This document shows, one piece after another, positions 19,620-56,039 of a stretch of DNA of 64,000 nt (positions are counted from its first letter, which is position 1; each line of letters opens with the position of its first letter). The notes beneath the pieces were generated by a model that saw only the letters and a list, made by a program, of their open reading frames with translations, was not told where the DNA came from and searched no databases. Both the position numbers and the translations under genes were made by a program. Origin of the DNA: an uncultured Pseudomonadota bacterium (GTDB lineage Bacteria > CALINM01); contig CAZIMS010000001.1 in assembly GCA_964540515.1 (NCBI GenBank), positions 223,291-287,290 of the forward strand. Direction: 5' to 3'.

Positions 19620-19621
19620 AT

Positions 19622-20218: not shown

Positions 20219-20233
20219 AACAGTACCTCCTAA

Positions 20234-30258: not shown

Positions 30259-30407
30259 TATTTACTCCTTATGTGGTAGATGTTAGTAGTTTATGTTAAT
30301 TTGTTGATAAATATATATATCTTCTTGTTATTAATATAAAAAAGTATGTGCAAAAAATGTTCATAAAAAAAAGTTTGTCAACGTTAAAAAGTAGTTTAAA
30401 AAATTTG

Positions 30408-36371: not shown

Positions 36372-36384
36372 AGGAGGCATATAT

Positions 36385-36606
36385 ATGGATGAAAAAGTCT
36401 TGTTAGCCTTTGCGGCGGCTCTTTCCGTTGGCTTATGTGGCATTGCAACAGCTTGGGCTCAATCAAAGATAGGCTCAGCGGGCTGTGGAGCTTTAGCAGA
36501 AAAACCAGAGCTTAGCGGCACAATAATTATACTTATTGCTATCCCTGAAACAATCATAATATTAGGTTTTGTAATCGCATCAATGATTCTATTTATGATT
36601 AAGTGA
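36385..36606 (+). CDS. A-type ATPase proteolipid subunit K (single-hairpin c subunit, 73 aa)
   Basis: Two TM helices with Gly/Ala-rich TM1 and the carboxylate in TM2 (AIPETIIILG). Start is taken at MDEK, preceded by AGGAGG. Confidence 0.75.
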   Translation: MDEKVLLAFAAALSVGLCGIATAWAQSKIGSAGCGALAEKPELSGTIIILIAIPETIIILGFVIASMILFMIK

Positions 36607-37196
36607 TGGAAAAAGAAAGTTTACTAAGACATTTATTAGAGAGTTTTGAAAGAGAAAAGGCTCTTCTTCAAGAAATGAAAGAGAAGGAAGAGAGAGAGAT
36701 TGAGTCTAATTATCTAAAAGAAAAGTTACGGTTGGAAGAAGGTTACAAAAAAACTAAAGAGCAAATGATCAAAGAGCTAAGAAAAAAAATTGAAGATGAG
36801 TATCTTCAGAAAGAGCTCGACCTTGAACTGTCACTCCAACATCTTTTAATGGATAAGATAAAGAGTATAGAAAAAAAGCTCATATTTTCTCTAAGAGATG
36901 AGAGATATGAGGAAGTGTTTTTTAATCTCTTCAATGAGTTACCTCATATAGAATGGAGTATTATTAAGATAAATCCTTTAGATAAAAAAATTGCAAAAAA
37001 ATACTTTCCTCAGGCAGAAATTATTGAAGATGGAGAAATTACAGGCGGCTTTATTGTCCTATCAAAGGACGGAAGAGTAATGATTGATAATACCTTTGAA
37101 AAAAGAGCTGAAAAGATAAGAGATGAGGCTTTATTAGGAATATATAAAGAGCTAATTAATTACTTTGGGAAAGATAATGTTAAAAGAGAATATTAA
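36603..37196 (+). CDS. A/V-type ATPase subunit E
   Basis: 197 aa; N-terminal coiled coil and globular C-terminus with ITGGFIVLSKDGRVMIDNTFEKR, typical of subunit E. Confidence 0.65.
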   Translation: MMEKESLLRHLLESFEREKALLQEMKEKEEREIESNYLKEKLRLEEGYKKTKEQMIKELRKKIEDEYLQKELDLELSLQHLLMDKIKSIEKKLIFSLRDERYEEVFFNLFNELPHIEWSIIKINPLDKKIAKKYFPQAEIIEDGEITGGFIVLSKDGRVMIDNTFEKRAEKIRDEALLGIYKELINYFGKDNVKREY

Positions 37197-38034
37197 ATCA
37201 GGCTATCCCTTCGAGTTTTTAATAGCAAGGTTAAGAAACCGTATTAACTCGCTTATTACAACTATAGCCTATTTAAAAGGTAATCTTGAGAGCCAAAGTG
37301 ATTTTGACTGGAATGGCTATAACCTTACCTTTCAAAGAGAGTATGTAAATCTTTACTTCTCCATTGAAGAGAAAGAAAGGGTGCTTTTAAGAAACCTCTT
37401 CATAATCTTTGAGATAAGAAATCTTATAAGTCTCATAAGATACGCCTTCTATGAGAGGAAAGAAGAGATAAAAGAGATATTTAAAAAATCTCTTTTAAGT
37501 GACGTGATAAGGGTTATCTTTTTAAGAGACGATAGTTTTAAAAAAAAGCTTGAAAACCTCTATTATCATTTAGGTCAGATAAACAGAGAGTTACCCAATA
37601 TATTAAATACCTTTGATGAAGAAAGCTTTAGAAGTTTTGAAGAAAATTTTACAAAAGCTATTCTTGAAGGGCTAGTTAGGGATAAAAAAAATATCCCAGA
37701 AGTTAGAGATTTTATTAAAAGGTTCATTGACTTTATCAATTTAAATGGCTTAAGCAAGGCAAATTACTGGAACAGCGAGAAAGCCCCCCTTTTTATAGAG
37801 GGAGGATTTTATACAAAAAAACAGTTAGAAGAGATGTCTTCCCAAGAAGATTTCACAAGTAGCTTGAGGTATATGAGAAAAATTGTTAATGAGCTTAGAA
37901 AAAAAATAGCTCACTCCGATTATTATCTCTTTGTCTTTTATATAAGCAATCTATACCTAGAAAACATAAATTTAAACATACTTTTTAATAGGTTAAATTC
38001 TATAGAGAGAGAGATGGAGACATATATAGTATGA
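37165..38034 (+). CDS. A/V-type ATPase subunit C (d-like)
   Basis: Position between E and F in the conserved H-I-K-E-C-F-A-B order; helical protein; shorter than typical (289 aa). Confidence 0.55.
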   Translation: MGKIMLKENIKSGYPFEFLIARLRNRINSLITTIAYLKGNLESQSDFDWNGYNLTFQREYVNLYFSIEEKERVLLRNLFIIFEIRNLISLIRYAFYERKEEIKEIFKKSLLSDVIRVIFLRDDSFKKKLENLYYHLGQINRELPNILNTFDEESFRSFEENFTKAILEGLVRDKKNIPEVRDFIKRFIDFINLNGLSKANYWNSEKAPLFIEGGFYTKKQLEEMSSQEDFTSSLRYMRKIVNELRKKIAHSDYYLFVFYISNLYLENINLNILFNRLNSIEREMETYIV

Positions 38035-38351
38035 CTAAAAAGATGATATTAATTACTACAGAGGAGCTGGAGAATATTTTTTCTATAATAGGTTTTGAGC
38101 AATATATTGTAAGTGATATCTACTCAGCCGAAGAGCTTATAAAAGAAAAGATAGGGGATGAGAGTATAGGTTTGATAATTATTGAAGAAGAACTCTTTAA
38201 AAAATTAACTGAAAAAACCCGTTTTATCCTTGAAAAGAGGTGGAAAGGAGCTATCTGTAAGCTACCTTCAATAAAAGAGCTTACTATAGAAGAAGGCTAC
38301 ACAATGAAAGAGATAACAAGAGTTTTAGGATATCAGTTAAAGATAACTTAA
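38031..38351 (+). CDS. A/V-type ATPase subunit F
   Basis: 106 aa, MILITTEELENIFSIIGFEQYIV N-terminus typical of subunit F. Confidence 0.65.
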   Translation: MTKKMILITTEELENIFSIIGFEQYIVSDIYSAEELIKEKIGDESIGLIIIEEELFKKLTEKTRFILEKRWKGAICKLPSIKELTIEEGYTMKEITRVLGYQLKIT

Positions 38352-38360
38352 GGAATTCTT

Positions 38361-39989
38361 ATGAAAAAAGGTTATGTTGAAGGCATTTCTGGTCATATTG
38401 TCCAGTCTTCCTTTAAAGATGTAAAAATAGGAGAGCGAGTCTATGTGGGAGAAAAAAATCTCGCTGGAGAAGTAGTAAGGATACTTAAAGAAGGCTGTCT
38501 TATAATGGTATTTGAAGATACAAGAGATGTTAAGTTAAAAGAAGAGATTATTTTTACAGATAAGGAGCCTAACGTCCTTTTAGGACCAGGCTTATTAGGA
38601 GGTATTTATGATGGTCTTCAAAGACAGCTAAGCTTCTTGATGGAAAGATATGGAAGCTTCATAAAGCCTATGAAAAACTTATTAGACATAAATCTTGGTG
38701 AGTACAAACTTAACTTTGTCCCTTTAAAAAAAAGTGGAGAAAGAGTTTTTAAAGGAGAAGCGGTAGGTTATGTAATTGAGAAGGGATTTAAGATATTTAT
38801 TTTTTCTCACAGAGAGGGGTTTTTAAAAGAGATAAAGGAAGGAAAGATAGATGTAGAAAAAGAGGTAGCCCTGCTAAAAGGAGGAGAGGCAATAAGATTT
38901 CATCATAGCTGGTCATTGAAAGAAAAAAGACCTTATAAAAAAAAGAGAAAACCCGAAAAGATTCTTCTAACAGGCCAAAGAGTTATTGATTTTCTCTTCC
39001 CCATCCCCTTAGGTGGCACCTTTATTATCCCCGGGGGTTTTGGTACGGGAAAGACAATCTTACAACAGACTATAGCAAAATTTGCACAGGCTGATATTGT
39101 AATCTATGTTGGATGTGGAGAGCGGGGGAACGAAATGGCTGAACTACTTGAAGAGTTTAGCGAGATAAAGGATCCTTGGGAGAATAGACCCTTAATGGAT
39201 AGAACGATAATTGTTGTAAATACATCTAATATGCCCGTTGCGGCGCGAGAGGCATCAATTTACACAGGTGTAACGATTGCTGAGTTTTATAGAGATTGTG
39301 GTCTTAATGTGCTTTTGATAGTTGATAGTATATCAAGGTGGGCCGAGGCTTTAAGAGAGATCTCCTCCTCCTTGGAAGAGATGCCAGGGGACGAAGGATA
39401 TCCTACCTATCTTATATCAAAGCTTTCAGATTTTTTTGAAAGAGCAGGTCTTTTTGATACCTTGAATAACACCTTAGGATCTATAACAATGTTAATATCT
39501 GTCTCCCCTCCAGGAGGAGACACAACAGAGCCAGTTACACAAAGCTGCCTTAGGACAGCTGGAGGTTTACTTATGCTTGATAAGGAACTGGCAAGCAGAA
39601 GATTTTTCCCTGCCATCAACCATAAGCTTAGTTACAGTCTTTATGAGAGAGATTTACAGAGGGCCTTAAAAGATATCTTTGGTGAGAACTATCAAGAACT
39701 TAAAAGTTTTATTATGACATTACTTAATGAAGAAGAAAAGTTAAGAGAGATACTTGATATAATAGGATACGAAAGCTTACAAGATAGGGATAGATTAATC
39801 ATAGATACAGCAGAGCTTCTTAAAGATAAATTTTTGAGTCAAAATGCCTTTAGTCATGATGCCTTCTCAACACCAAAAGAGATGGTAGAGAAGGTTGAGT
39901 TAATAAAGAGAAAATATAGAGAAGCCCAAGAGTTACTTGAGACAGGAAATCCCTATTTTGAGGTAAGAAGGGTCTATGAATCTTTTTGA
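38361..39989 (+). CDS. A/V-type ATPase catalytic subunit A
   Basis: P-loop GGFGTGKT, GERGNEM, and the non-homologous region preceding the nucleotide-binding domain; 542 aa. Confidence 0.9.
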   Translation: MKKGYVEGISGHIVQSSFKDVKIGERVYVGEKNLAGEVVRILKEGCLIMVFEDTRDVKLKEEIIFTDKEPNVLLGPGLLGGIYDGLQRQLSFLMERYGSFIKPMKNLLDINLGEYKLNFVPLKKSGERVFKGEAVGYVIEKGFKIFIFSHREGFLKEIKEGKIDVEKEVALLKGGEAIRFHHSWSLKEKRPYKKKRKPEKILLTGQRVIDFLFPIPLGGTFIIPGGFGTGKTILQQTIAKFAQADIVIYVGCGERGNEMAELLEEFSEIKDPWENRPLMDRTIIVVNTSNMPVAAREASIYTGVTIAEFYRDCGLNVLLIVDSISRWAEALREISSSLEEMPGDEGYPTYLISKLSDFFERAGLFDTLNNTLGSITMLISVSPPGGDTTEPVTQSCLRTAGGLLMLDKELASRRFFPAINHKLSYSLYERDLQRALKDIFGENYQELKSFIMTLLNEEEKLREILDIIGYESLQDRDRLIIDTAELLKDKFLSQNAFSHDAFSTPKEMVEKVELIKRKYREAQELLETGNPYFEVRRVYESF

Positions 39990-41295
39990 GATATCCTACA
40001 GAAATATTAGCGAGATAAAGGGACCACTACTTTTTTTAGAGGGAGTTTTCTCCGTTAGATCGGGAGAGGTGGTTAAGATAATCTACCCCGATAAAAAAGA
40101 GGGGAGAGGAGAGGTATTAAAAATAGATAAAAATAAAGTGCTTATACAGATTTTTTCAGATCCCAAGGGGCTTTCTGTTGAGGCTCAGGTAATTTTTACA
40201 AATGATATAGCCAAAGTGCCTCTATCTATGCAGATACTAAATAGAGTTTTTGATGGCTCCTTTAAGCCTTTAGATGATAAAGGGTTTTTTATTCCCGTAA
40301 AGAAGGTTCCTATCACAGGCTATCCCATAAATCCAGTAAGTCGGGCATCACCAGAAGATTTTATAGAAACAGGATTATCTACCATAGATGGGCTTAACAC
40401 TCTTGTAAAAGGCCAGAAATTACCAATATTTTCAGGCTCAGGTCTTCCTTCAAAGGAGATTGTAAGGTTTATATTACAAAATGCAAAGATAAGAAGTGAT
40501 AAGAATTTTGCTGTAGTCTTTATTGCTATTGGTCTTTCCTTTTATGACTATCATCACTACTTAGATACTATTAAAACATTAAATGCAAACTATGTAGCCT
40601 TTATAAATCTTTTAGATAGTCCTACAATGGAAAGATTATTAGTACCTCGCTATGGCCTTACAGTTGCGGAATACTTTGCCTTTGAACATGCCTTTGATGT
40701 GCTTGTTATTATATCTGATATGACTAACTATTGTGATGCCCTAAGAGAGATATCCTCTGCAAGAGAAGAGCTTCCTGGTAGGCGTGGATATCCGGGTTTT
40801 ATGTACTCTGACCTAGCTAGTCTTTATGAAAGGGCAGGTAGATTAAAAAATAAAGAAGGCTCTGTTACAATTCTTCCTGTTCTTACTGTGCCAGAAGATG
40901 ATATTACCCATCCTATACCAGATCTGACAGGCTATATAACTGAGGGACAGATTGTCTTATCAAGAAAGCTCCACCAAAAAAATATATTTCCACCAATAGA
41001 TGTTTTGCCAAGCCTATCAAGACTTATGAATAGAGGTATAGGTGAGGGTAAAACCCTTAAAGAGCATCGGCACATAGCAAATCAGCTATACAGACTTTAT
41101 GCGAAAGGTGTTGATCTAAGAAAACTCTCAGCACTCTCTGGGAGAGAGGGTTTGCCCGAAAAAGAACAAAAAATTCTTGATTTCGCAGAATTTTTTGAGA
41201 AAAAATTTATCCACCAAGAAAAAAGAAGAGACATAAAAGAGACCTTAGAGATAGGCATTAACCTTATTAATAAAGTCGAGAATATTAATCTATAA
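39976..41295 (+). CDS. A/V-type ATPase regulatory subunit B
   Basis: 439 aa; B-subunit motifs (SGSGLP, PGRRGYPGFMYSDLASLYERAG). Confidence 0.9.
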   Translation: MNLFEISYRNISEIKGPLLFLEGVFSVRSGEVVKIIYPDKKEGRGEVLKIDKNKVLIQIFSDPKGLSVEAQVIFTNDIAKVPLSMQILNRVFDGSFKPLDDKGFFIPVKKVPITGYPINPVSRASPEDFIETGLSTIDGLNTLVKGQKLPIFSGSGLPSKEIVRFILQNAKIRSDKNFAVVFIAIGLSFYDYHHYLDTIKTLNANYVAFINLLDSPTMERLLVPRYGLTVAEYFAFEHAFDVLVIISDMTNYCDALREISSAREELPGRRGYPGFMYSDLASLYERAGRLKNKEGSVTILPVLTVPEDDITHPIPDLTGYITEGQIVLSRKLHQKNIFPPIDVLPSLSRLMNRGIGEGKTLKEHRHIANQLYRLYAKGVDLRKLSALSGREGLPEKEQKILDFAEFFEKKFIHQEKRRDIKETLEIGINLINKVENINL

Positions 41296-41435: not shown

Positions 41436-42422
41436 ATGCTAAAAAAAGGCTTCTTTGTGGTTGTTGCCCTAATGTTTTTTCTTGCCTGTGCCACTATGCA
41501 AGAAAAAAGGGCAAAGATGTTTTCACCCTTAGAGTATCTTCAGGGAGCCTCTTATGTAGGTAGCGAAAGCTGTAAGGGCTGCCACGAAAAAGTATTCAGT
41601 GACAAAGCAAATGTGCATCTAAGGGTAAAAGATTTTGAGACTGGCGGGATAAAGACTGGTTGCGAGAGCTGTCATGGTCCTGGTTCTTTACATGTTGAAG
41701 GTCAGGTTGAAAAGATTATTAGCTTTAAGAAAAAAGATTTAGACGTAGTATCCCAATGTATGGCCTGTCATCAAACAATGAAGACCATGTCCTTTGAAGG
41801 CACAGCCCATGCAAAGGATGGTATAGTCTGTATTGAATGTCACAAGGTGCACGACAATAAAATAGCAAAGTTACTCAAAAAAGAAGAAACCGCTCTCTGT
41901 ACAACATGTCATTTAGATATTAAATCAAAGCTTTATAACCCCTCTCATCATCCTATTAGGGAGGCCAAAATGTCTTGCTCAAGCTGTCATAATGTACACA
42001 ATGCTAACGCTGGTATGTTAAACACAGATGAGGGTAGCAAAGAGCTTTGCCTTTCTTGCCACACCAAGTATCAAGGTCCCTTTGTATTTGAACATGCACC
42101 TGTTATAGAAGATTGTATGAACTGTCATAATCCACACGGGACAATAGCCAATAAGCTTCTTAAACAAAATGAGCCTTTCGTCTGTCTACAGTGTCACGAA
42201 GCCCATTTCCACGCCCTTAGAGCATCCTCTAAGAATGATTTGCAATATTTAGGCATTCGGGATCCCTATACAAATAATCCAGTTACTATAAAAGGTGATC
42301 CAGACCAAAGAGGTTTCCAGAAGGCATACTTAACCAAGTGCACCCAGTGTCATACATCTGTTCATGGTTCTGACCTGCCATCTCAGGGCATAACAAGTCA
42401 GGGCAAAAGTTTGACAAGATAG
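41436..42422 (+). CDS. Periplasmic decahaem c-type cytochrome, MtrA/MtoA/PioA family
   Basis: Ten CxxCH motifs counted directly (CKGCH, CESCH, CMACH, CIECH, CTTCH, CSSCH, CLSCH, CMNCH, CLQCH, CTQCH) in 328 aa. The N-terminal signal peptide has a probable A-x-A cleavage site. Confidence 0.85.
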   Translation: MLKKGFFVVVALMFFLACATMQEKRAKMFSPLEYLQGASYVGSESCKGCHEKVFSDKANVHLRVKDFETGGIKTGCESCHGPGSLHVEGQVEKIISFKKKDLDVVSQCMACHQTMKTMSFEGTAHAKDGIVCIECHKVHDNKIAKLLKKEETALCTTCHLDIKSKLYNPSHHPIREAKMSCSSCHNVHNANAGMLNTDEGSKELCLSCHTKYQGPFVFEHAPVIEDCMNCHNPHGTIANKLLKQNEPFVCLQCHEAHFHALRASSKNDLQYLGIRDPYTNNPVTIKGDPDQRGFQKAYLTKCTQCHTSVHGSDLPSQGITSQGKSLTR

Positions 42423-42431
42423 GAGGGCCAT

Positions 42432-44894
42432 ATGAAAAAAATTATGATATCAATTATATGTTTGCTTTTAGGGGTGAGCTTATCCTACGGAGATGATAAA
42501 AGTTTTTCTGGCTCCATAAAGATAGGTGGCTCAGGCCATGATTTAAAAGATTCGGGCACCCTTGTATCTGAATACAACAAAGAAAACAAGAATGACATAA
42601 ACCCATTAGTAGAGATTAAAGGTATCTATGATAAAGAGGCAAGGATAGAGTTTAAAGGTAGCTATATCCACCCAGAAAGTCAGTATTATAAGTTTAAGCT
42701 TGATGGTGAAAGAGTCTTTAGATTCGAAACAGACTATCAAAGATTTTTTCATATCACCAGTAAGGATAATCTAAAAAATCTTTGGGCCCATGTTGGTGAA
42801 GATTATAGGAACAATACCACTTTGGCATCAGGGCCAGATGGAAATGCAGATCCTATGCGTGCACCCGGATTTGCTTTAGTACCAGCAACAGGAACAACTT
42901 CTTTAGGGCAAATAGGCTCAGCGACGGTTTATAATAGTGATATGTCGACAATGTCAAATTATGGCAAATCCGTTACGGAATGGAAAAATAACCTTTATGT
43001 AAATCTGCCAGCTTTAAATGGAGTAACCTTTGGTATAAAGAGTAAGATATTAGAAAGAAAAGGTTTTGACCATTCAACCGTAACTGCCCATTGTAGCACC
43101 TGTCATGTAACAGGCTACGATAAAAGGGTAGAAGAAAAAACCACAGATATCACTCCTTTTATTGATGCTAAGCTTGGTAAATTTTCTTTCAACTATAAAA
43201 TGTCTGCAAGAGACTTCTCAAATAAGGCAGAAGAGACCTTTAAATACGACAGAACAGGCAGCCCTCTTGATAATTCAAACCCCTTCAGAAATAGGAATAT
43301 GTTTGATATAGATGACGGTTATCTACCAGCTAATGTTGACCCTGAATCAAAAAAATTTACAAACACTCTAAAGCTAAGATACGACTTCTCCAAAAACGCA
43401 AATATTATAGTTACAGGTATTCTTTCTGAATCTACAAACAAGTCAACCAACGGTGCCTATGACCTTTTAAGAGGTAAGTATGGTAAAGACCTTGAGTCTG
43501 ATTATAAAGCGTTAGATCTAAAATACCATAGAAAGATTAATAAAGACCTTACCTTTAATATGAAGGCCTATTATAAAACACAAGAAAATGATGATGTCTT
43601 TATAGATGTCATAGAAAGATTAAACCCCGCTGGAGCACCAGGTGGCGCAGTAACTTTTCTAAATGGTCTTCAAACTAACACTTATAATACTACAACTAAT
43701 TTTACCTCCTTTGGTATAGAAGCCTATCCAAACCCACTTGTTTTAGATTTTACAAGACATTCACTACTTAATAGAGACGAGATGGGGATTAATTTTGATC
43801 TAAATTATAGACTGTCAAAAGAGCTTAATCTCTTTGCTTTACTTGGTGTAGATAAGATAAAGAGAGATTATGCCCATGAGTATGAGGTGACTGAAGAAAC
43901 AGAAAAATATAGTCTAAAAATAGGAGCAAACTACAAACCCTCTTCCACGCTAAGATCAAAGCTAACATATAAATATACTAAAATAGATGACCCTTTTATA
44001 TTTTTTAAAGCTGGTTGTGCTGAATCTTATTCACGAGGCGATGCTAATGATACCGATGGCTTAGAACCACATATTTATTACAATGTACCTGTTGGAATGT
44101 ATCGGTGGGACGCTTTATATGGTCCGGTTGTATACAATAGAAGGAAGGCAGGCATGAGCATAGAGCCTACAGGAGAACATCAGATTGACTTAACAATAAA
44201 CTATCTTCCAACAGAGAAGCTTGGTGTTGATCTTTCTGCAAAAATAAAAGATGCAAAAAATGATGATCTTGCCACCTATGACTGGAAAAGAAAGATTTAC
44301 AACGCCAATGCCAATCTGAACTATGCTGTAAACCAAGATTTTGGCCTATACATTGCTTACAACTATCTTAGAGAAAAATATGATAGTATCCTCTGTGCCT
44401 CCTATTACGATGGTTGAGCAAACATAATTCTCTCAAGCCAGGTTGGCTCTGAGCAAAACAATATTAACTATAAAAACGAAGCAAACACAATACTCTTAGG
44501 TGGTAACTATAGTCTAAATAAAAAGACTAACCTTACGGCAAACTTTGTATATAACAAGATTAAAGGCTACATAGAGGGACCAAATTTTGCAAACTCTGTC
44601 TGGACTGACAAAAAGCTGGGTTATCTTTATGATGGTATAGATAATATACAAGGCAATAATCCATCAGAAGTATTGCTTTATAATTTTGCCTATATGAATA
44701 TCTTGCCTGAGCTTTCAGATCTCCAATATGATATTTATGATTTTAATATCTCCGGAGATTATAAGGTCACCGATAATTTAAAGGTGTCCCTTGGCTATCT
44801 CCTATCTGTGGTGAAGGATAAAAAGGGCTATGTATATGGTGACGAAGATGGAAAGATCCATACTGTCTCTGCAAGTTTAACATACAACTTCTAA
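42432..44894 (+). CDS. MtrB/MtoB/PioB-like outer-membrane beta-barrel (porin partner of the decahaem cytochrome). It is a single ~820-codon frame interrupted by one in-frame TGA at 44415-44417.
   Basis: Signal peptide; alternating amphipathic beta-strand pattern rich in Y/N/T/G; C-terminal ...LTYNF ending in Phe, typical of an OMP. ORFs 42432-44417 and 44673-44894 are in the same frame, and the sequence between them is open except for one TGA. Confidence 0.6.
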
Positions 44895-46746: not shown

Positions 46747-47991
46747 TTATATCTTACATCTATCTGATGTTTTTATGGCGCAAAGGTCACCGCACATTGT
46801 GCAAGGCTCTTCTTGACTTAGCTTATCACCTAACATATCTTTTGCCTTTTTAGGATTAAAGGTTAAGCTTGCCTGCCTTTGCCAATCTAACTTTCTCCTT
46901 GCTAAAGCCATCTCTTTTTCTTTCTCCCAGGCTAATTTGTTAGCTCTCGCTAAATCGGCAGAGTGAGCAGCTAACCTAAGAGCGATTACGCCTTCTTTTA
47001 CCTCTTCTGCCGTTGGTAGCTTTAGATGTTCTGCAGGAGTAACATAGCAGAGAAAATCTGCTCCAAAGTAAGCGGCCCAAGAAGCACCAATTGCAGCAGA
47101 GATATGGTCATAGCCTGCAGCGATGTCTGTAACAAGAGGACCTAACACATAAAAGGGTGCATTATGGCATAAGTATTTTTGCATTTTTATATTGGTCTCT
47201 ATTTGGTTAATCGGTACATGGCCAGGACCTTCAACTATTGCTGGTACAGCAAGCTCTCTACTTTTCTTTACCAACTCACCAAGTATTATAAGCTCACTTA
47301 TCTGGCTTGCATCGGTGGCATCAAGGGTAGAGCCTGGTCTTAACCCATCTCCTAAGCTAATTGCAACGCTATATTTTTTCATTATCCTTAAAATATCTTC
47401 AAAATGCTCATAAAGAGGGTTTTCTTTATTATTTTTTTCCATCCACTCAACAAGAAGAGATCCGCCTCTTGAGACTACACCAAGTATCCGTTTATTTTTC
47501 TTTAATCTCTCTACACAATGCCTTGTAAGCCCAGCATGTATAGTCATAAAATCGACACCACTTTCTGCCTGCTCTTCCAAGACTTCGAGAAAGTTTTTTA
47601 TATCCATCTTTTCAAAACCAACATTTTTTTTCACTATAAGATCATAGGCAATCTCATAGATTGGTACTGTACCAAGAGGTAGTTTTGTCTGAGATAAGAT
47701 CTCTTTTCTAATCTTTTTAAGATCCCCACCTGTTGATAGGTCCATTATTGCATGGGCTCCAAATTCTTCAGAGACCTTAACTTTTTTTAGCTCCTCTTTA
47801 ATATCGCAATGTCTCTCTGAGGTGCCAATATTCGCATTAATCTTTACAGATAGAGGAAAGCCAATCCCCAATGGCTCAATGTCTCTCTGCTTGTTTTTTA
47901 CAATTACAATAGACCCTTCCTCTAAGCCTTTCTCTAAGATGCTTATATCTACCTGTTCTTTTTTTGCTACAATACTTATTAGTTCTTTCAT
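46747..47991 (-). CDS. thiC: Phosphomethylpyrimidine synthase ThiC
   Basis: 414 aa radical-SAM-type ThiC with the C-terminal CxxCGxxC cluster motif (CTMCGDLCAI). Confidence 0.9.
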   Translation of the reverse strand: MKELISIVAKKEQVDISILEKGLEEGSIVIVKNKQRDIEPLGIGFPLSVKINANIGTSERHCDIKEELKKVKVSEEFGAHAIMDLSTGGDLKKIRKEILSQTKLPLGTVPIYEIAYDLIVKKNVGFEKMDIKNFLEVLEEQAESGVDFMTIHAGLTRHCVERLKKNKRILGVVSRGGSLLVEWMEKNNKENPLYEHFEDILRIMKKYSVAISLGDGLRPGSTLDATDASQISELIILGELVKKSRELAVPAIVEGPGHVPINQIETNIKMQKYLCHNAPFYVLGPLVTDIAAGYDHISAAIGASWAAYFGADFLCYVTPAEHLKLPTAEEVKEGVIALRLAAHSADLARANKLAWEKEKEMALARRKLDWQRQASLTFNPKKAKDMLGDKLSQEEPCTMCGDLCAIKTSDRCKI

Positions 47992-47992
47992 C

Positions 47993-48589
47993 TTATCCCC
48001 ATTGCATTCTTAATTTTTGTAAACTTTTTAGGTAATCTTTATTACCAAAAACAAGACTTCTTATAGCAATACCATAGGCACCTGCCTCTTTTATAAGATA
48101 GCTATTATCTTGATTAATACCGCCAATTGCATAGACAGGCTTACTTGTTAGCGATACAATCCTTTTTAAGGTCTCTATCCCCCTGCCTGCCACGCCTTCT
48201 TTGCATGATGTCTCAAAAACATTACCATATACAAAAAAATCCGCCTCATTACAAAATCTTTTCACCCTCTCCTCATCATGGACAGAAAGTCCAATTTTAA
48301 GTTGAGGAAATTTTTTCTTAACAAGAGAAGGCTCAATACTAACCTCTTTTAACTGAACACCAAAGACATTGTATATATATGCAAGATCTACCCTATCATT
48401 AATGACAAGATTAATCTTGTCATCGGCTATCTTTAAAATTTTATCTATTGTCTCCGATAACTCTTTTGCTGTTAAATCATTTTCTCTAAGCTGAATAAAA
48501 TTAAATCCTTCCTTGAGCAAGTCAGAGACAATTGTATAAAAATTAGCCCCTGCAAGCTTTCTGTCTGTAATAATATAAATCCTATCCAT
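47993..48589 (-). CDS. thiE: Thiamine-phosphate synthase ThiE
   Basis: 198 aa TMP-synthase fold (IYIITDRKL, IQLREND, VYAIGGIN). Confidence 0.8.
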   Translation of the reverse strand: MDRIYIITDRKLAGANFYTIVSDLLKEGFNFIQLRENDLTAKELSETIDKILKIADDKINLVINDRVDLAYIYNVFGVQLKEVSIEPSLVKKKFPQLKIGLSVHDEERVKRFCNEADFFVYGNVFETSCKEGVAGRGIETLKRIVSLTSKPVYAIGGINQDNSYLIKEAGAYGIAIRSLVFGNKDYLKSLQKLRMQWG

Positions 48590-49377
48590 TACTCAATTAA
48601 ATCTGTCAAGGGACTTGAAGCTGAGGCGTATAGTTTTTTTGGCATTCTACCGGCTAAATAGGCAAGTCTGCCAGCTTCAACGGCAAGCCTCATGGCACGG
48701 GCCATCATAATAGGATTTTTTGCCGCAGCTATTCCTGTATTCATCAAAACACCAGCACAACCAAGCTCCATGGCTATAGAAGCATCTGATGCTGTACCAA
48801 CTCCAGCATCAACAATAACTGGAACCTTAACAGTCTCTAAGATAATTTTTATGTTGTAGGGGTTTCTAATTCCTAAACCAGAGCCAATAGGTGCTCCTAA
48901 GGGCATAACGGCAGCACAACCTATATCCTCTAATTTTTTAGCCATAATGGGGTCATCATTTGTATAAGGAAGGACGATAAAACCTTCATCAACAAGTATC
49001 TTAGCTGCCTTAAGGAGTTCCTCGTTGTCAGGAAAGAGGGTTTTTTTATCTCCAATAACCTCAAGCTTTACCATATCAGAAAGCCCCATCTCTCTTGCAA
49101 GTCTTGCTGTCCTAACGGCTTCTTCAGCTGTGTAGCAACCTGCTGTGTTAGGAAGTATAGTAATGTTAAGCTCAGATAGATAATCAAGAATTGTCCTTTT
49201 TTGACTGGCGATCTCTATTCTTCGTAGAGCAACTGTTACAACCTCTGCGCCGGACTCTTCTATAGCGCCGAGCATAAGCTCAGGTGTTTCATACTTACCT
49301 GTTCCAACAAAGAGCCTTGATTTAAACTTTTTTCCTCCAATCTCTAATAGATCTTGCATATTATCCTCCTCCAACAA
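48589..49377 (-). CDS. thiG: Thiazole synthase ThiG
   Basis: 262 aa; TIM-barrel ThiG with Schiff-base Lys region ([16 protein letters not shown]). Confidence 0.9.
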
Positions 49378-49561
49378 AAGTTACGATCTCTATTTGATCG
49401 TTTTCTTTAATATTTGTACTGTCCCAGTTAGAACGTTTAACTATCTCCTTGTTTAGCTCGACGGCCACATAATTTTGTTTAATTTTAAGAAAATTAAGTA
49501 GCTCAGATACAGTTATGTTATCAGGTATGGTAGTCTCTTTTCCGTTAATCTTAACTATCAT
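49361..49561 (-). CDS. thiS: Sulfur carrier protein ThiS
   Basis: 66 aa ubiquitin-like protein ending ...VGGG. Confidence 0.75.
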
Positions 49562-50877
49562 AGGAGCTCCTCACTGGCTGTTTTATATTGTGAAGATTTC
49601 TCAAATTTATCAAGATAGTCATTAAACCTATTTTTTAGTGATTCATCTTTTAGGCTATTGACATACTCTCTAAAGGTAATAATGGCGTTTCTGTGGCAAA
49701 AATCTTTTATAACCTCTTTCTCTGCTAAATGATGAAACTCTCCACCTACTCTTGCCTTTCCATAGCAGGCAGTGCAAAAACTAGGTAGAAACCCTCTTTC
49801 TAAAATAGAAAAAACCACATCTTCTAAACTTCTCTTATCGTTAAGAGAAAATTGAGAGCCCTGTTCTTCTTCTATTATATCAGTGTAGCCGCCAGGAGAT
49901 GTTTTGGATTCGGCGCTTATCTGAGAAGCACCATAATAAAGAATCTCATCTCTTAGCTGGGCTGGCTCTCTGGTGGAGACAACAATACCTGCTGTAGGGA
50001 CAGCGATTCTATATACCGATACAATCTTCTTAAATGTAAAATCATCAACAGGATAGGGTGGATGTTCTAATAAAGCACCTTTTGCATATCTAAATCTCGG
50101 TACAGAAATGGTATGTGGGTAGGTGCCAAAGGTTTTTTTTAGATATCTTGCATGGGATATAGTTGCCAAAACATCGTATTTATAATCATAAAGCCCAAGT
50201 AATGAACCAATACCAACATCATAAAAACCTGCTTCAATGGCCCTATCAATAGCAGTTAATCGGTAGTAAAAATCGCTTTTTTTGCCTTTTATATGTAGTT
50301 TTTTATAAGTCTCTTCGTTATAGGTCTCCTGAAAGAGCTGATATACACCTAAACCTTCTTTCTTAATCTCCTTTAGCTCTTCTCTCTCCATAGGTGCAGC
50401 ATTGATATGCAATATCCTAAGCCCCGATTTTTTATAAATCTCTCTTACTACAGAACTTATGTAATCGACCCCACAGAGAGCCTTGTTTTCGGCAAGTACC
50501 AATAATGCCCGCTTAAATCCTCTTTTTTCCAAAAATTTAGCCTCTTCTAAAGCCTCTTTTGGGGTTAGGGTCTTTCTAACCTCTGTAATATTGCCATTCT
50601 GAAAACCACAATAGAGACATTTATTAGTACACTCATTAGAAAGATATAAAGGAGCAAAAAGGACAATTCTATTGCCAAATACTTTGGTCTTTATCTTTAA
50701 AGCAGCCTCTTGAATCTGTTTTAGGCTTTCTTCTCTATCAATAGAAAGAAGGTATGAGATCTCTTCTAATGAGAGAGTTTTTCCTTCTAAAGCCCTAGAT
50801 AAAAGCTTTTCAAGCCCATCCTTTGTGATAGTAAAATTTTCTCTTGAAAGCTCTTCAATAGCTCCAAAATCAAGCAT
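49558..50877 (-). CDS. thiH: ThiH/HydG-family radical-SAM tyrosine lyase (2-iminoacetate synthase), carrying a HydG-type C-terminal CX2CX22C motif
   Basis: N-terminal radical-SAM CTNKCLYCGF. C-terminus FCTAC-YGKARVGGEFHHLAEKEVIKDF-C has exactly CX2CX22C spacing. 439 aa, longer than the canonical ~375-aa ThiH. Sits between thiS and thiD. Confidence 0.7.
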   Translation of the reverse strand: MLDFGAIEELSRENFTITKDGLEKLLSRALEGKTLSLEEISYLLSIDREESLKQIQEAALKIKTKVFGNRIVLFAPLYLSNECTNKCLYCGFQNGNITEVRKTLTPKEALEEAKFLEKRGFKRALLVLAENKALCGVDYISSVVREIYKKSGLRILHINAAPMEREELKEIKKEGLGVYQLFQETYNEETYKKLHIKGKKSDFYYRLTAIDRAIEAGFYDVGIGSLLGLYDYKYDVLATISHARYLKKTFGTYPHTISVPRFRYAKGALLEHPPYPVDDFTFKKIVSVYRIAVPTAGIVVSTREPAQLRDEILYYGASQISAESKTSPGGYTDIIEEEQGSQFSLNDKRSLEDVVFSILERGFLPSFCTACYGKARVGGEFHHLAEKEVIKDFCHRNAIITFREYVNSLKDESLKNRFNDYLDKFEKSSQYKTASEELL

Positions 50878-50878
50878 A

Positions 50879-52198
50879 TTAATATTTGTAAAACTCCTTT
50901 ATCTTAGTAATCTTATCTACCACCTGCTGCGGGTCTTTACCAAATATCCTAATAACAGGCTCTTTCCCCATTCCACCTTCATCATAGATAAAGTCAGGCG
51001 GGTTTTTAAGTTTTTTGCATGCCTTTGTAACCCCCCAGTCCAGGCTACTTCCTTCTTTCTCTCTAATCTCGCGGGGCTCCTTTGTTCTATCAAAAAAACC
51101 GACTTCATAGCCTGCCTCTTTTATCTTTTCGATAACCAATTTATCATACTTAAGTGCCATAGCAGAGTTTAGTTGAGGGAAAAACTTTTTTGCTGAGAGA
51201 ATGACCCTACCTACATGTTTTGCCCCGCCAAAAACAGGAAAAGAAGGCGTATCAATATCATCGCCAACTGAAATAATCCTACCTCTAAAGCCAGCAACAT
51301 CATCTATGCTTTCAGCCCAAGGTAAGGCATAGACAAGATTGGACTGAACCTCTGGCAATATCTTACCTATTTTAAGCTCCTTAAGCCTCATAAAGGCCTT
51401 AATAAGTCCATCTATGCAACGGTATTGATAGGCAGAACGTCTAAGAGTTGCAAACTGATCTAATGTGCCAAAGTTAGAGCCCAGGGGTATACCATATTTT
51501 AAGGCATTATGGACAAAATCCCTTGCTTGAATTATAGCCTCAAGATAATCATTAGTATGAATTAAAAAAGAGGCAATAGCAGTAGCAAGACTACAGCCTG
51601 TGCCATGGGTGTTGTTTGTTATAATTCTCTCTATCTTAAAATCGTAGATATCTTTCCCGTCGAAGAAGACATCATAGTCGTATTTAGCGTCACCACCTTT
51701 TATCAAAACCCTTTTTGCGTGTCTTCCTATTTTTTTTGCGGCAGCTTTTGCATCATTAAGAGAAGCTATCTCTATGCCACTTAACTTTTCAGCCTCGTAA
51801 AAATTTGGGGTTATAAGAGAACAGTCTTTGATGATTTTATTAAAAATATTGTCAGGTGATAGCATACTACCACTTTGGGAGAACATCACGGGGTCTAAGA
51901 TAACAGGTTTTTTTTGGCTTTTAATAAATCTATGAACAACCTGAGCTACTTCTTCGCTACCAAGCATGCCAATTTTTATGGCTGAAAATTCAATATCATC
52001 AGAAACGGCATCGAGCTGACTCTTTATATCTACAGTAGGGACAAGATGGACCTTGTGAACCCCCTTTGTATTCTGAGAAGTTACAGCCGTAATAACGGTA
52101 AGGGGATATATACCTACCGCTGAGGCTGTCTTTATGTCAGCCTGAATACCAGCACCAGCTGAAGAATCAGAGCCCGCAATAATTAAAAGTCTTCTCAT
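50879..52198 (-). CDS. thiDN: Bifunctional ThiDN: HMP/HMP-P kinase (ThiD) fused to an archaeal-type thiamine-phosphate synthase domain (ThiN)
   Basis: Residues 1-265 are ThiD (ribokinase-fold GxGC motif NTHGTGCSLATAIAS). Residues ~270-439 match the ThiN domain as recalled, e.g. GFRGRIISVGDD. Confidence 0.8.
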   Translation of the reverse strand: MRRLLIIAGSDSSAGAGIQADIKTASAVGIYPLTVITAVTSQNTKGVHKVHLVPTVDIKSQLDAVSDDIEFSAIKIGMLGSEEVAQVVHRFIKSQKKPVILDPVMFSQSGSMLSPDNIFNKIIKDCSLITPNFYEAEKLSGIEIASLNDAKAAAKKIGRHAKRVLIKGGDAKYDYDVFFDGKDIYDFKIERIITNNTHGTGCSLATAIASFLIHTNDYLEAIIQARDFVHNALKYGIPLGSNFGTLDQFATLRRSAYQYRCIDGLIKAFMRLKELKIGKILPEVQSNLVYALPWAESIDDVAGFRGRIISVGDDIDTPSFPVFGGAKHVGRVILSAKKFFPQLNSAMALKYDKLVIEKIKEAGYEVGFFDRTKEPREIREKEGSSLDWGVTKACKKLKNPPDFIYDEGGMGKEPVIRIFGKDPQQVVDKITKIKEFYKY

Positions 52199-53013
52199 AG
52201 ATCCTCCTCAATATCTCTTTCGCCAAGCAATATTCTTATGACCTGATTTGCCTGATGTCCTGCAGCGATAGCTACCCTTGGAGCCATAAGCCCCATACCA
52301 GGCCTAGCCTCAGAGACTAAATCTCCCACAACAAAAAGCCTTTTTGCAAACCTTCTAGTCTTAATATCATTATTAGGGCCATACCCAGCAAGCCCCGAGG
52401 CACTAACTATATAGACATCATCCATTTTTTCAAATATGGTATTTATAAGCATAGCCTTCATATCTGCTCTATCAAAGGCTTCAACTATTACGCAACAGTT
52501 AAAGAATATCTCAGGTATATTATCAGGATTTAGCATAACATTATGAGTAACAACCTCGATAAAGGGATTAATTCTTGAAAGATTCTCCTTTAAGGCGTAA
52601 ACCTTTTCTTTGCCCAGCTGATCAATAAAATATTGCTGTCTATTAAGATTAGATGGCTCAACTATATCAAAGTCGGCTATAACAAGTCTGCCAACGCCAA
52701 CACGAGCTAAAGAAATAGCCACGTTTGAGCCAAGACCACCTACACCTGCAATGCCAACAGTACTTGCTTTAAGTCTCTCATAAACGTTGGGTGTATGCCT
52801 TGCAACAAGCATGTACTCAAGTTCTTCTTTAGAGGGAGTTTCTCCTCGCTTGATAAAATTAATAACATCGCCATCTTTAAGTAAAAGATTATCTTTTATG
52901 GGAAAACCGTTATAAACGATAATATCGGCCTGAGGATTTATCTTATTTTTTACATCAAAGATGGTTGTACCTGCAGGGAAAAAAAGTTCTCTTTCGTTAA
53001 CTTTTATCTTCAT
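52195..53013 (-). CDS. thiF: ThiF/MoeB-type E1-like sulfur-carrier adenylyltransferase with an N-terminal ThiS/MoaD-like ubiquitin-fold domain
   Basis: Rossmann GIAGVGGLGSNVAISLARVGVGRLVIADFDIVEPSNLNRQ. The first ~57 aa (MKIKVNERELFFPAGTTIFDV...DGDVINFIKRG) resemble ThiS but lack the GG terminus. Confidence 0.8.
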   Translation of the reverse strand: MKIKVNERELFFPAGTTIFDVKNKINPQADIIVYNGFPIKDNLLLKDGDVINFIKRGETPSKEELEYMLVARHTPNVYERLKASTVGIAGVGGLGSNVAISLARVGVGRLVIADFDIVEPSNLNRQQYFIDQLGKEKVYALKENLSRINPFIEVVTHNVMLNPDNIPEIFFNCCVIVEAFDRADMKAMLINTIFEKMDDVYIVSASGLAGYGPNNDIKTRRFAKRLFVVGDLVSEARPGMGLMAPRVAIAAGHQANQVIRILLGERDIEEDL

Positions 53014-53059
53014 AAAGATTTTTGGGGATGTAAATTAGCTGATGATTGGAATGAAAAGG

Positions 53060-53155
53060 TTGATATGAAGCCTTCCCTCCGACGGCATTACCCGCATCAG
53101 GTTCCATGGGTTGTCTCCAAAGAGACTCTCAGCTAAAAAAGCACCCCCGGCTTTC
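53060..53155 (-). ncRNA. TPP (THI-box) riboswitch in the 5' leader of the thiamine operon
   Basis: Minus-strand sequence GGGGTGC...GCTGAGAGTCTCTTTGGAGACAACCCATGGAACCTGATGCGGGTAATGCCGTCGGAGGGAAGG contains the conserved CTGAGA, ACCC, GAACCTGAT, GGTAATGCC and GGGAA blocks, ~50 nt upstream of the thiF start. Confidence 0.8.
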
Positions 53156-53162
53156 TCACTAT

Positions 53163-53354
53163 TTATTTTTTCTCAAAAATTATTTTGTGACCAATAAGAT
53201 TAATCTCTGTTATAACGCCAGAGATTTTTTTCCTCTCACCCATAAGCCCTTCAACAACAAACTCATTCTCGCCTGTGGGTATGATTCTTACCGCTTCTTT
53301 ATAAAAAAGCTCCTCTTTATCGCCTTCTTTTATGTAGACATTTGACTCGCACAT
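53163..53354 (-). CDS. CooT-like small nickel-binding CODH accessory protein (63 aa)
   Basis: Starts MCESNVYIKEGDKEELFYKEAVRIIPTGENEFVVEGLMGERKKISGVITEINLIGHKIIFE. The MC(E)xN start with Cys2 and ~65-aa beta-rich architecture match the CooT family as recalled. The track ORF begins 19 codons upstream with a hydrophobic stretch that is probably not translated. Confidence 0.5.
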   Translation of the reverse strand: MCESNVYIKEGDKEELFYKEAVRIIPTGENEFVVEGLMGERKKISGVITEINLIGHKIIFEKK

Positions 53355-53489
53355 ATTTTTTATTACAACAACAAATATGAAAAAAGTCAAACAAAAAAAT
53401 TTTAAAGCCACCTTAGCTATAGAGATTATTATAAGAGAGATAAAAAAGATGAAAAGAGGTACAAGTGAGGTTTCAAAAGTACGTAAATG

Positions 53490-54298: not shown

Positions 54299-54574
54299 TT
54301 GTCAGCAAAAAGGGTAAATGTTAGTATTAGAAAAATGGGTAAGGGCAAAAATTTTAGAAAGTATTTTTATTTAAGCTCAATTGGGATTGAGATGGGTGTT
54401 GCCACCATGATTGGTATGGGGATGGGGTGGCTAATAGATAAGTATATTCTTGGGGATAAATATTCTCCTTTATTTACGTTAATTTTTCTATTTTTTGGTT
54501 TTGCAGCAGGTATAAAAAATGTTATAAAGCTAATGAAAAGTTTAGGGAAGGATAGTAATGAATCAGAAGAATGA
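54299..54574 (+). CDS. AtpZ-like small membrane protein (putative F-ATPase operon gene 1)
   Basis: 2-TM 91-aa protein resembling the AtpZ/ATPase_gene1 family (GIEMGVATMIGMGMGWLIDKY...FTLIFLFFGFAAG); first gene upstream of atpI-atpB-atpE. Confidence 0.55.
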   Translation: MSAKRVNVSIRKMGKGKNFRKYFYLSSIGIEMGVATMIGMGMGWLIDKYILGDKYSPLFTLIFLFFGFAAGIKNVIKLMKSLGKDSNESEE

Positions 54575-54944
54575 TCAAAACGGTATCATAGATTTTGTCG
54601 TAATGTTTATGATAGTTTTTCTTATTTTAGGTGTAATAATAATCTCTATCTTCTTTTTTAGTTTTGTAAATCTCATTAGTTATTTAGCAGGAGGAGCAAT
54701 TTCTATTCTTAATTTTATCTGGTTAAAGAGATTAATAAAAAAATTGATTGGTCATGGAAAGTTTACAAAGAAATCAGGTCTTGAGTGGGGAGTGAAAATT
54801 TTAATTATCTTTGGTTTAATTACTGTTTTAATTTTAAAAACAAAAATAAATATCTTGATTTTTATCATTGGTTTGAGTATATTACCATTTGCAGTGATTT
54901 TGCAAAGTGTAGTAAGCTATCTTAAAACTATTGGGGGGAGGTAG
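54558..54944 (+). CDS. ATP synthase protein I (AtpI)-like membrane protein
   Basis: 128-aa 4-TM protein in the atpI position immediately upstream of atpB. Confidence 0.45.
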   Translation: MNQKNDQNGIIDFVVMFMIVFLILGVIIISIFFFSFVNLISYLAGGAISILNFIWLKRLIKKLIGHGKFTKKSGLEWGVKILIIFGLITVLILKTKINILIFIIGLSILPFAVILQSVVSYLKTIGGR

Positions 54945-55683
54945 TAAAATGGCGGGTGGAGCGACACCTTTTACCTTTGATCAGGTTATTCCTGGGCTTA
55001 GTTCTATTGCTAAAGATCAATCTTTGGGTATACATGGAGGTACCCATGTATCAAATGCGATCTTAATAGTCTCAATAATTTTTCTTATAGTTTTTTTGGG
55101 CACAAGAAGACTTAAGCACACAGAAGAGGGAGCTATTCCTGATTCAACCTTTACTTTTAAGAATTTTTGCGAGCTTCTTGTAGAAGGTATCTTAAAGATA
55201 ATGGAAGATTCCTTAGGGCACCATGCAAGAAAGTTTTTGTATCTCATCGGTTCTGCTGCAATTTTTATACTTTTTTCAAATCTTTCAGGTCTTGTGCCTG
55301 GCTTTAATCCTCCAACTGACAATCTCAACACAACGGCAGCATGTGCTATAACAGTATTTTTGCTTTATAACTACCATGGCCTTAAAGAACACGGAGTTGC
55401 TTATCTTAAACATTTTGTAGGACCTTTCTGGTGGCTAGCTCCTTTGATGATACCTATTGAGATTATAGGTCATTTGGCAAGACCTCTTTCTCTCTCTCTC
55501 AGGCTTTTTGGTAATATAATGGGAGATCATCTTGTTACCGCAATCTTTTTTGCCCTTGTTCCGCTTCTTGTTCCAGTTCCAATAATGGTTTTAGGTGTTT
55601 TTGTTTCCTTTGTTCAGACCTTTGTATTTTGTTTACTTTCCATGGCCTACATCTCTGGTGCTGTCGAACACGGCGAGCACTAA
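54931..55683 (+). CDS. atpB: F-type ATP synthase F0 subunit a
   Basis: Conserved Arg helix ARPLSLSLRLFGNIMGDHLV, 5-6 TM helices. Alternative start at 54949 (MAGGATPF). Confidence 0.85.
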   Translation: MGGGSKMAGGATPFTFDQVIPGLSSIAKDQSLGIHGGTHVSNAILIVSIIFLIVFLGTRRLKHTEEGAIPDSTFTFKNFCELLVEGILKIMEDSLGHHARKFLYLIGSAAIFILFSNLSGLVPGFNPPTDNLNTTAACAITVFLLYNYHGLKEHGVAYLKHFVGPFWWLAPLMIPIEIIGHLARPLSLSLRLFGNIMGDHLVTAIFFALVPLLVPVPIMVLGVFVSFVQTFVFCLLSMAYISGAVEHGEH

Positions 55684-55718
55684 TCGAGAATAGAAAAAAA
55701 AAGAAAGGAGGAATGAGA

Positions 55719-56039
55719 ATGAAAAAGGCTTTTCTAACTACCGCAATTGTTCTTGCTCTCGCTTCATTTGCTTTTGCAGCAGAGGGAACACCAGCAGGTG
55801 GTCTTTCCGATTCCGTTAAAGTGGCTATTGCTATAGCTTCTGGTTTCGGAATTGCTATTGCCGCTGCTTTTGGTGGATTATCTCAGGCAAAGGGTCTTTC
55901 TACAGCCCTTGATGGTATTGCAAGAAATCCTGCTGCATCCGGTAAGATTGTTACACCCATGATTATCGGTCTTGCTATGATTGAGTCTCTCGTTATTTAC
56001 TCTCTTGTTATCTCATTAATGCTAGTCTTAAAACTCTAA
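55719..56039 (+). CDS. atpE: F-type ATP synthase F0 subunit c with N-terminal signal-like extension and Na+-binding-type motif
   Basis: Hairpin GFGIAIAAAFGGLSQAKG...IIGLAMIESLVIYSLVISLML with Q...ES...Y. Preceded by GGAGG 7 nt upstream. The ~25-aa N-terminal extension MKKAFLTTAIVLALASFAFAAEG looks like a signal peptide. Confidence 0.85.
   Translation: MKKAFLTTAIVLALASFAFAAEGTPAGGLSDSVKVAIAIASGFGIAIAAAFGGLSQAKGLSTALDGIARNPAASGKIVTPMIIGLAMIESLVIYSLVISLMLVLKL

Follow-up and report, generated by a model that had tools for sequence, protein, structure and literature searches.

The closest described relatives of the gene examined here are two radical S-adenosylmethionine (SAM) tyrosine lyases. HydG, the H-cluster maturase of [FeFe]-hydrogenase (family model TIGR03955), whose structure has been solved for T. 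italicus (4WCX) and C. hydrogenoformans (4RTB), consists of a radical-SAM TIM barrel followed by a C-terminal helical domain with a CX2CX22C motif. The lower barrel of HydG, with its invariant Arg/Asn/Thr/Ile set, leads to an auxiliary cluster with a dangler Fe, where the product is split to CN− and CO. Canonical ThiH (TIGR02351; E. coli b3990; 7PD1 from T. carboxydivorans) is a single-domain protein of about 365–380 amino acids (aa) whose gene has thiS and thiG as neighbours. In the stretch of DNA analysed here, a 64-kb window (64,000 nucleotides of contig CAZIMS010000001.1 from an uncultured Pseudomonadota bacterium), a minus-strand open reading frame (ORF) of 439 aa between thiD-thiN and thiS encodes a lyase with the architecture of HydG and the gene context of ThiH. 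This protein is likely to be the 2-iminoacetate (dehydroglycine) synthase of the thiamine operon, that is, a HydG-like ThiH in which the Fe-S domain is kept and the lower channel is remodelled.

An earlier note on this DNA had described a radical-SAM lyase of this length between thiS and thiDN, and both the ORF and its neighbours were confirmed. The C-terminus reads PSF-C368-TA-C371-YGKARVGGEFHHLAEKEVIKDF-C394-HRN, which is, as the note had said, the exact CX2CX22C of the HydG type. Searches of the PDB sequences with phmmer gave E-values of 3e-107 for the T. italicus HydG (4wcx) and 1e-106 for the C. hydrogenoformans HydG (4rtb) compared with 4e-55 for ThiH (7pd1), and identity to HydG is about 40%. 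The three cysteines align column for column with the auxiliary-cluster cysteines (‘CTACY...FC’) of 4wcx and 4rtb. The AlphaFold2 model of the lyase, with a predicted local distance difference test score (pLDDT) of 92.9, superposes over its full length on 4wcx_A with a template-modelling (TM) score of 0.93 and a root mean square deviation of 2.1 Å over 445 columns, whereas with ThiH only the barrel superposes (TM 0.75). E. coli ThiH, with 377 aa, stops at the end of the barrel in the alignment, in agreement with the note's statement that ThiH normally lacks this domain; the window protein has about 62 extra C-terminal residues.

Conservation of the C-terminal domain was assessed in the 120 closest database clusters (90% identity), which are 47–100% identical to the window protein. 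All three auxiliary cysteines are invariant in these clusters (120/120), of which 119 show the X22 spacing and one shows X21, and the surrounding motif PS-x-C-T-x-C-Y-R-x-G-R-x-G-x-x-F is retained. Since the cysteines are homologous in position to those of HydG and their spacing is conserved in orthologues, the motif assignment stands against both objections that the earlier note had foreseen, a lack of homology and a lack of conservation. Among the thi-linked proteins of this kind (hereafter thi-type), pairwise identity is 0.54–0.57 in the C-terminal domain and 0.60 in the barrel, while that of the HydG C-terminal domain is 0.67. The invariant cysteines together with conservation near the level of the barrel indicate that the domain is under purifying selection, and on the basis of the three cysteines it is predicted to bind a cluster, very probably still of the [4Fe-4S] type. 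Other parts of the domain are less like HydG: a Met that is near-invariant in HydG (88/94), a Lys-Pro and a Pro are not conserved in the thi-type, and the terminal ‘E-G-x-RD’ tail, kept in other thi-type proteins and in HydG, has been lost in the subclade of the window protein, which numbers at least 29 clusters.

The loss of this tail, the conservation below that of HydG and the existence of two thi-linked relatives without the domain (P0137, 363 aa, and P0164, 381 aa) would be expected if the protein works as ThiH and its C-terminal domain is an inert relic that lacks a cluster or a role. That explanation is nevertheless unlikely, as the cysteines and their spacing hold over the whole range of identity, the motif around them is kept, and the domain, for which the structure model has high confidence, is conserved nearly as well as the barrel.

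The operon consists of a thiamine pyrophosphate (TPP) riboswitch followed by seven genes in the order thiS-like/thiF, thiD-thiN, lyase, thiS, thiG, thiE and thiC, with intergenic gaps of −17 to +1 nucleotides (nt). The riboswitch and the thi genes look like a single operon under TPP control. BLAST searches with verified Shewanella proteins gave no match to HydA, HydE or HydF among all ORFs of the 64-kb window, and no hydrogenase or maturase was present among 20 further window ORFs annotated with Pfam. No second thiH-like gene was found in the window, and the operon has no other source of dehydroglycine. Promoter and terminator scans of the operon gave matches at chance level only and were not used.

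Thiamine-phosphate synthase is encoded twice in the operon, by ThiE and by the unrelated ThiN domain fused to ThiD, and there are also two ThiS-type carriers, one a free ThiS and the other a ThiS-like domain fused to ThiF. An ORF of the CooT family (CO-dehydrogenase nickel accessory; PF10133, 63 bits) at 53163-53411 on the minus strand ends 5 nt before the riboswitch, and the order CooT-riboswitch-thiSF also occurs in a 65%-identical relative (L001, 7535-7726).

A total of 87 homologous loci were collected, their flanks (±10 kb) were annotated by BLAST against reference Thi and Hyd proteins, and the loci were sorted according to whether the protein is closer to the window type or to Shewanella HydG. 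Thi genes adjoin the lyase gene in each of the 16 thi-type loci whose flanks could be read (the window, L001, L002, L004-L011, L014, L019 and L085-L087), the usual order being lyase-thiS-thiG-thiE-thiC, and BLAST of these flanks detected hydA, hydE or hydF in none (0/16). In the HydG-type loci, hydE, hydF or hydA lies within 10 kb in 43/69 and thi genes in 0/69. The thi-linked set includes metagenome-assembled genomes (MAGs) of Nitrospirota/Thermodesulfovibrionia, ‘Deltaproteobacteria’ and Deferribacteres, as well as the cultured firmicute Moorella mulderi, where the order is thiE-thiS-thiG-lyase. A TPP riboswitch heads 11 thi-type operons and in seven of these directly precedes the lyase gene (L002, L005, L007, L008, L010, L085 and L087).

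Two Nitrospirota MAGs (L011 and L019) have an operon organisation unlike the rest of the thi-type: the lyase gene follows thiS-like/thiF, no thiG was detected in the downstream flank, where L019 has thiS only, and there is no TPP riboswitch at the gathering score. Two thi-type loci that are not related to each other (L010, 3779-3860; L087, 5915-6022) have a cyclic di-GMP-I riboswitch a few kb before the thi operon, probably by coincidence.

The lyase scores 373.6 bits on the NCBIfam HydG model TIGR03955 (cutoff 312.15) and 323.9 bits on the ThiH model TIGR02351 (cutoff 380), which places it above the curated equivalog cutoff of the former and below that of the latter. On TIGR03955 the two kinds of protein fall into separate bands, with 12 thi-type proteins at 366–449 bits and 11 context-verified, hyd-linked HydGs at 478–648 bits, so that the cutoff of 312 bits lets in both; the window protein lies inside the thi-type band and below all 11 HydGs. 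The model was calibrated on about 180 HydF-containing genomes (PMC3226654). Close relatives are named HydG at NCBI and 2-iminoacetate synthase at JGI, and the automatic name ‘[FeFe] hydrogenase maturase HydG’ covers the thi-type, including all 120 nearest 90%-identity clusters. The lyase is thus no oddity of a single genome, as it belongs to a large thi-linked group that the NCBI pipeline systematically names HydG. Among GTDB representatives, the best match of the window protein has 64% identity.

The barrel residues that discriminate between the groups were defined empirically here, independently of the literature. HydG has Arg (94/94), Asn (94/94), Thr (94/94) and Ile (92/94) at window positions 155, 157, 178 and 299 (R178, N180, T201 and I322 in T. 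italicus HydG), whereas the thi-type has Ile (15/16), His (16/16), Val (16/16) and Val (16/16); the window protein has I155, H157, V178 and V299, and neither H157 nor V299 varies in the 120 nearest clusters. Residues 155, 157 and 159 alternate on one predicted β-strand, so that 155 and 157 point in the same direction as 159, the residue in contact with the substrate, and lie progressively nearer the bottom of the barrel; V178 is on the next strand, four residues before gate residue F182. From this register, I155, H157, V178 and V299 are predicted to line the lower channel.

Other barrel positions are shared with HydG alone or with both HydG and ThiH. In T. carboxydivorans ThiH, E158 contacts the tyrosine carboxylate, and T299, R300, R306, S318 and S321 bind tyrosine (PMC9046217). 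The tyrosine pocket (T302, R303, R309, S321 and S324 in the window protein) and the radical-SAM cysteine triad are common to the thi-type, HydG and ThiH. By contrast, N159 of the window protein sits at the position of E158, which is the HydG state, while Glu is present in 48/48 ThiH representatives. The channel gate, F74/F182, is Phe/Phe as in HydG and mostly Tyr/Tyr in ThiH, and barrel identity to ThiH is 0.37. His265 of T. italicus HydG is a ligand of the dangler Fe (PMC8855341). H242 of the window protein aligns with this residue, but 47/48 ThiH representatives have a His there too, and it was rejected as a sign of HydG-type chemistry.

Phylogenetic comparison with ThiH and HydG, which the earlier note had proposed, separates the window protein from the hydrogenase maturases. 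In a neighbour-joining (NJ) tree built from 88 sequences with two ThiHs as the root, the thi-linked proteins are sister to all hyd-linked HydGs. For a further NJ analysis, 48 ThiH-type outgroups and other lineages were added that had been collected by searching 1.8 billion cluster representatives exhaustively. Here the hyd-linked HydG clade, without any thi-linked protein, was recovered in 92/100 bootstraps, with the window protein outside it, and an exclusive thi-linked clade in 57/100. These sequence trees place the thi-type as a sister clade or basal grade to crown HydG and not as a recent escape from it.

The two domain-less relatives extend the group. The ORF of P0137 is complete and stops where the barrel ends; the protein shares 49% identity with the window lyase and carries Asn at 159, and its gene is followed by a ThiS-ThiG fusion; the P0164 gene is followed by thiS-thiG-thiE-thiC. 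Like the window protein, both are thi-linked with thiS-thiG downstream and have Asn at the E158 position; unlike it, they have no Fe-S domain and their lower-barrel residues are SNNL and RNNA, respectively. Their barrels are 0.44–0.51 identical to the window protein and HydG compared with 0.34–0.38 to canonical ThiH. Based on these sequence comparisons, HydG and the thi-linked lyases with or without the Fe-S domain form what is here called the Asn-type superclade. As the domain-less P0137 and P0164 are also thi-linked, the Asn-type barrel itself evidently serves thiazole synthesis.

Several further sequences lie at the boundaries of these groups. P0142 (JGI 3300072015, a 5.3-kb contig) is a divergent lyase of 443 aa with the three cysteines and the lower-barrel residues Q-N-N-I, and the genes around it belong to neither the thi nor the hyd set (the order is sigma-70 factor, DUF1858, lyase gene, rpsP-KH-ylqD-rimM). 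Additional cysteine-bearing lineages have other channel residues (P0163, P0168, P0170, P0174, P0189, P0193, P0195 and P0202). P0128 (L088, 217-1626), a member of the HydG clade with a complete C-terminal tail, shows a mixed signature, R-H-N-V; its contig is short, with a membrane protein downstream, and it is a possible intermediate or an exception to the signature rule. Five long proteins of 803–1102 aa (P0127, P0129, P0133, P0134 and P0172) are fusions in which the C-terminal half is an RNNT-type HydG.

In the proposed mechanism, low TPP would permit expression of the seven-gene operon through the riboswitch, as its Rfam match and position suggest. The N-terminal CX3CX2C cluster would cleave SAM, and the resulting 5′-deoxyadenosyl radical would attack tyrosine in the pocket formed by T302, R303, R309, S321 and S324. 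By homology to ThiH and HydG, tyrosine cleavage is expected to give p-cresol and dehydroglycine, the latter travelling down the barrel past the F74/F182 gate. With Ile/His/Val/Val in the lower barrel, dehydroglycine would leave unfragmented and pass to ThiG, encoded two genes downstream, where the thiazole would be formed with ThiS-thiocarboxylate and 1-deoxy-D-xylulose 5-phosphate. As a guess, the C-terminal domain may cap the bottom of the barrel, holding or gating the labile imine until ThiG takes it, or may have a redox role.

A number of observations weigh against this interpretation. The lyase passes the curated HydG cutoff and fails that for ThiH. All known protein ligands of the HydG auxiliary site, the three cysteines and H242, are present, so loss of the metal site cannot be argued from the ligands. 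P0164, thi-linked and domain-less, carries Arg at position 155 and Asn at 157, so that these residues, of uncertain functional meaning, are not exclusive to CO/CN chemistry and do not mark it on their own; their combination with the auxiliary domain may be what counts. Placement of the discriminating residues in the lower channel is by strand register only, and a literature search gave no paper assigning roles to them. No riboswitch was matched at the gathering score in five thi-type or related loci. The trees are distance (NJ) trees only, and as support for monophyly of the thi-type is 45–57%, monophyly is not claimed. Finally, the survey covers a 64-kb part of the source genome and, for each relative, ±10 kb, and hydA, hydE, hydF or a canonical thiH or thiO may be encoded elsewhere.

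The presence of the full auxiliary-site ligand set in a thi context could also mean that the enzyme is bifunctional, supplying dehydroglycine to ThiG and CO/CN ligands to a hydrogenase in organisms with a single HydG-type gene. HydG without its C-terminal domain releases mainly 2-iminoacetate (PMC10114646), and given this result a partitioning between the two outcomes is chemically plausible. The HydG-invariant residues are, however, uniformly replaced across the thi-type, hyd linkage is absent from the annotated flanks of every thi-type locus, control by a TPP riboswitch fits hydrogenase need poorly, and organisms with [FeFe]-hydrogenase, for example Shewanella, normally have separate ThiH and HydG (PMC3226654); a dual role is thus rather improbable.

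Very unlikely is a genuine HydG that only happens to lie in the thi operon and provides an [FeFe]-hydrogenase, encoded at another place in the genome, with the Fe(CO)2(CN)-cysteine synthon while another enzyme supplies dehydroglycine for the thiazole, for although the HydG model score, the CX2CX22C motif with His242, the fold match to T. italicus HydG and the NCBI names of close relatives agree with it, hyd genes are absent from the thi-type flanks and common beside true HydG, TPP would switch expression off, the four near-invariant barrel residues and the Met, Lys-Pro and Pro of the C-terminal domain are replaced, the conserved tail is lost in the window's subclade, the protein lies outside the hyd-linked clade with a model score under every verified HydG tested, and the operon has no other source of dehydroglycine. 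On the DNA surveyed, 64 kb from the source genome and the flanks of the relatives, the bifunctional and the misplaced-hydG options that the earlier note had listed are disfavoured. The thi synteny, the lack of hyd neighbours, the position outside the hyd-linked clade and the replacement of HydG-invariant residues indicate that the lyase is probably not a hydrogenase maturase.

The remaining option of the earlier note, a HydG-like enzyme recruited to thiazole synthesis, is the one favoured by the evidence, namely the synteny, the riboswitch, the absence of hyd neighbours and the residue replacement, but the direction implied by ‘recruited’ may be reversed. HydG may derive from thiamine enzymes, as the thi-linked proteins lie outside crown HydG and domain-less thi-linked relatives exist. 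We tentatively consider, as a possibility not to be favoured at present, that the thi-linked lyases with the Fe-S domain are surviving representatives of the HydG ancestor, the auxiliary domain having arisen in thiamine biosynthesis and been co-opted later through the change from I/H/V/V to R/N/T/I. The steps would have been ThiH, Asn-type ThiH, Asn-type ThiH with the Fe-S domain, and HydG. The open Fe of the cluster would then, for example, have chelated and protected the labile imine for hand-off to ThiG, and a few lower-barrel substitutions would have led to fragmentation of the same intermediate, yielding CO and CN− as H-cluster ligands.

The lineage is apparently undescribed: no account of HydG-type enzymes linked to thi genes came up in full-text searches of the literature, and the single ‘ThiH-like’ match proved to be unrelated. 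HydG serves as a marker for [FeFe]-hydrogenase capacity, and since thi-type proteins carry the name HydG, surveys that use this marker will over-count that capacity. The two could be separated by a threshold near 460 bits or by the strand signature, RxNxN versus IxHxN. The conversion of dehydroglycine to CO and CN− by HydG has been called a remaining grey area in the literature. The thi-type has the same fold and cluster ligands, yet presumably must not destroy dehydroglycine, which leaves a handful of residues to swap. If the thi-type does represent the ancestor, it would offer a natural ‘off-switch’ variant for dissecting HydG chemistry. As a plausible intermediate between ThiH and HydG, it bears on the origin of H-cluster biosynthesis.

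Table 1 Features of the lyase gene and thiamine operon, with window positions and the evidence for each.
Feature	Position	Strand	Evidence
TPP riboswitch aptamer, 42 nt upstream of first gene	53056..53158	-	Rfam RF00059, 69.7 bits (gathering score 54.3), full model 1-105
ThiS-like/ThiF fusion (sulfur-carrier adenylyltransferase)	52195..53013	-	Pfam ThiS-like residues 1-57 and ThiF residues 74-267
ThiD-ThiN fusion (hydroxymethylpyrimidine phosphate (HMP-P) kinase and thiamine-phosphate synthase); 4-nt overlap with upstream gene	50879..52198	-	Pfam Phos_pyr_kin 257 bits, ThiN 187 bits
HydG-type radical-SAM tyrosine lyase, 439 aa, proposed functional ThiH	49558..50877	-	TIGR03955 373.6 / TIGR02351 323.9 bits; 4wcx E=3e-107; AlphaFold2 pLDDT 92.9; Foldseek TM 0.93
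Radical-SAM cluster motif C83-X3-C87-X2-C90 (CTNKCLYC)	50608..50631	-	Read directly; invariant in all groups
Barrel strand I155-L-H157-I-N159; I155 and H157 replace HydG-invariant Arg and Asn	50401..50415	-	Alignment; predicted β-strand 155-159
V178 in place of HydG-invariant Thr (94/94); four residues before gate F182, same strand	50344..50346	-	Alignment
Tyrosine-binding T302, R303, R309, S321, S324 (T. carboxydivorans ThiH T299, R300, R306, S318, S321)	49906..49974	-	Alignment
C-terminal helical Fe-S domain, residues 366-439 (74 residues), without terminal ‘E-G-x-RD-h-h-h’ tail	49561..49782	-	Alignment, AlphaFold2 model
Auxiliary-cluster motif C368-X2-C371-X22-C394	49696..49776	-	Read directly; alignment to HydG
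ThiS sulfur carrier; 4-nt overlap with lyase gene	49361..49561	-	Pfam ThiS 65.6 bits
ThiG thiazole synthase, presumed dehydroglycine acceptor	48589..49377	-	Pfam ThiG 386 bits
ThiE thiamine-phosphate synthase	47993..48589	-	Pfam TMP-TENI 134.5 bits
ThiC HMP-P synthase, last operon gene	46747..47991	-	Pfam ThiC_Rad_SAM 589 bits

Elsewhere in the window, a 622-aa Prismane/CO-dehydrogenase protein (PF03063, 623 bits) is encoded on the minus strand at 17751-21433 together with a 198-aa ORF and a Pyr_redox_2 flavoprotein that follow it. This is possibly an anaerobic CO-dehydrogenase (CooS/CooF-type) cluster, from which the organism is probably an anaerobe handling CO. The chromosomal origin region lies at 25848-31709 on the minus strand, with dnaA, dnaN, recF and gyrB in the usual order. 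At 34512-41295 and 54299-56039 on the plus strand, two kinds of ATPase genes lie within 20 kb of each other, those of a V/A-type enzyme (subunits I, A and B) and those of an F-type ATP synthase (atpI/atpB/atpE-like). A multihaem cytochrome with paired CXXCH motifs (MtrC/NrfB-like matches), followed by a 661-aa outer-membrane β-barrel, is encoded at 41436-44417 on the plus strand and resembles an MtrA/MtrB-like extracellular electron-transfer pair.

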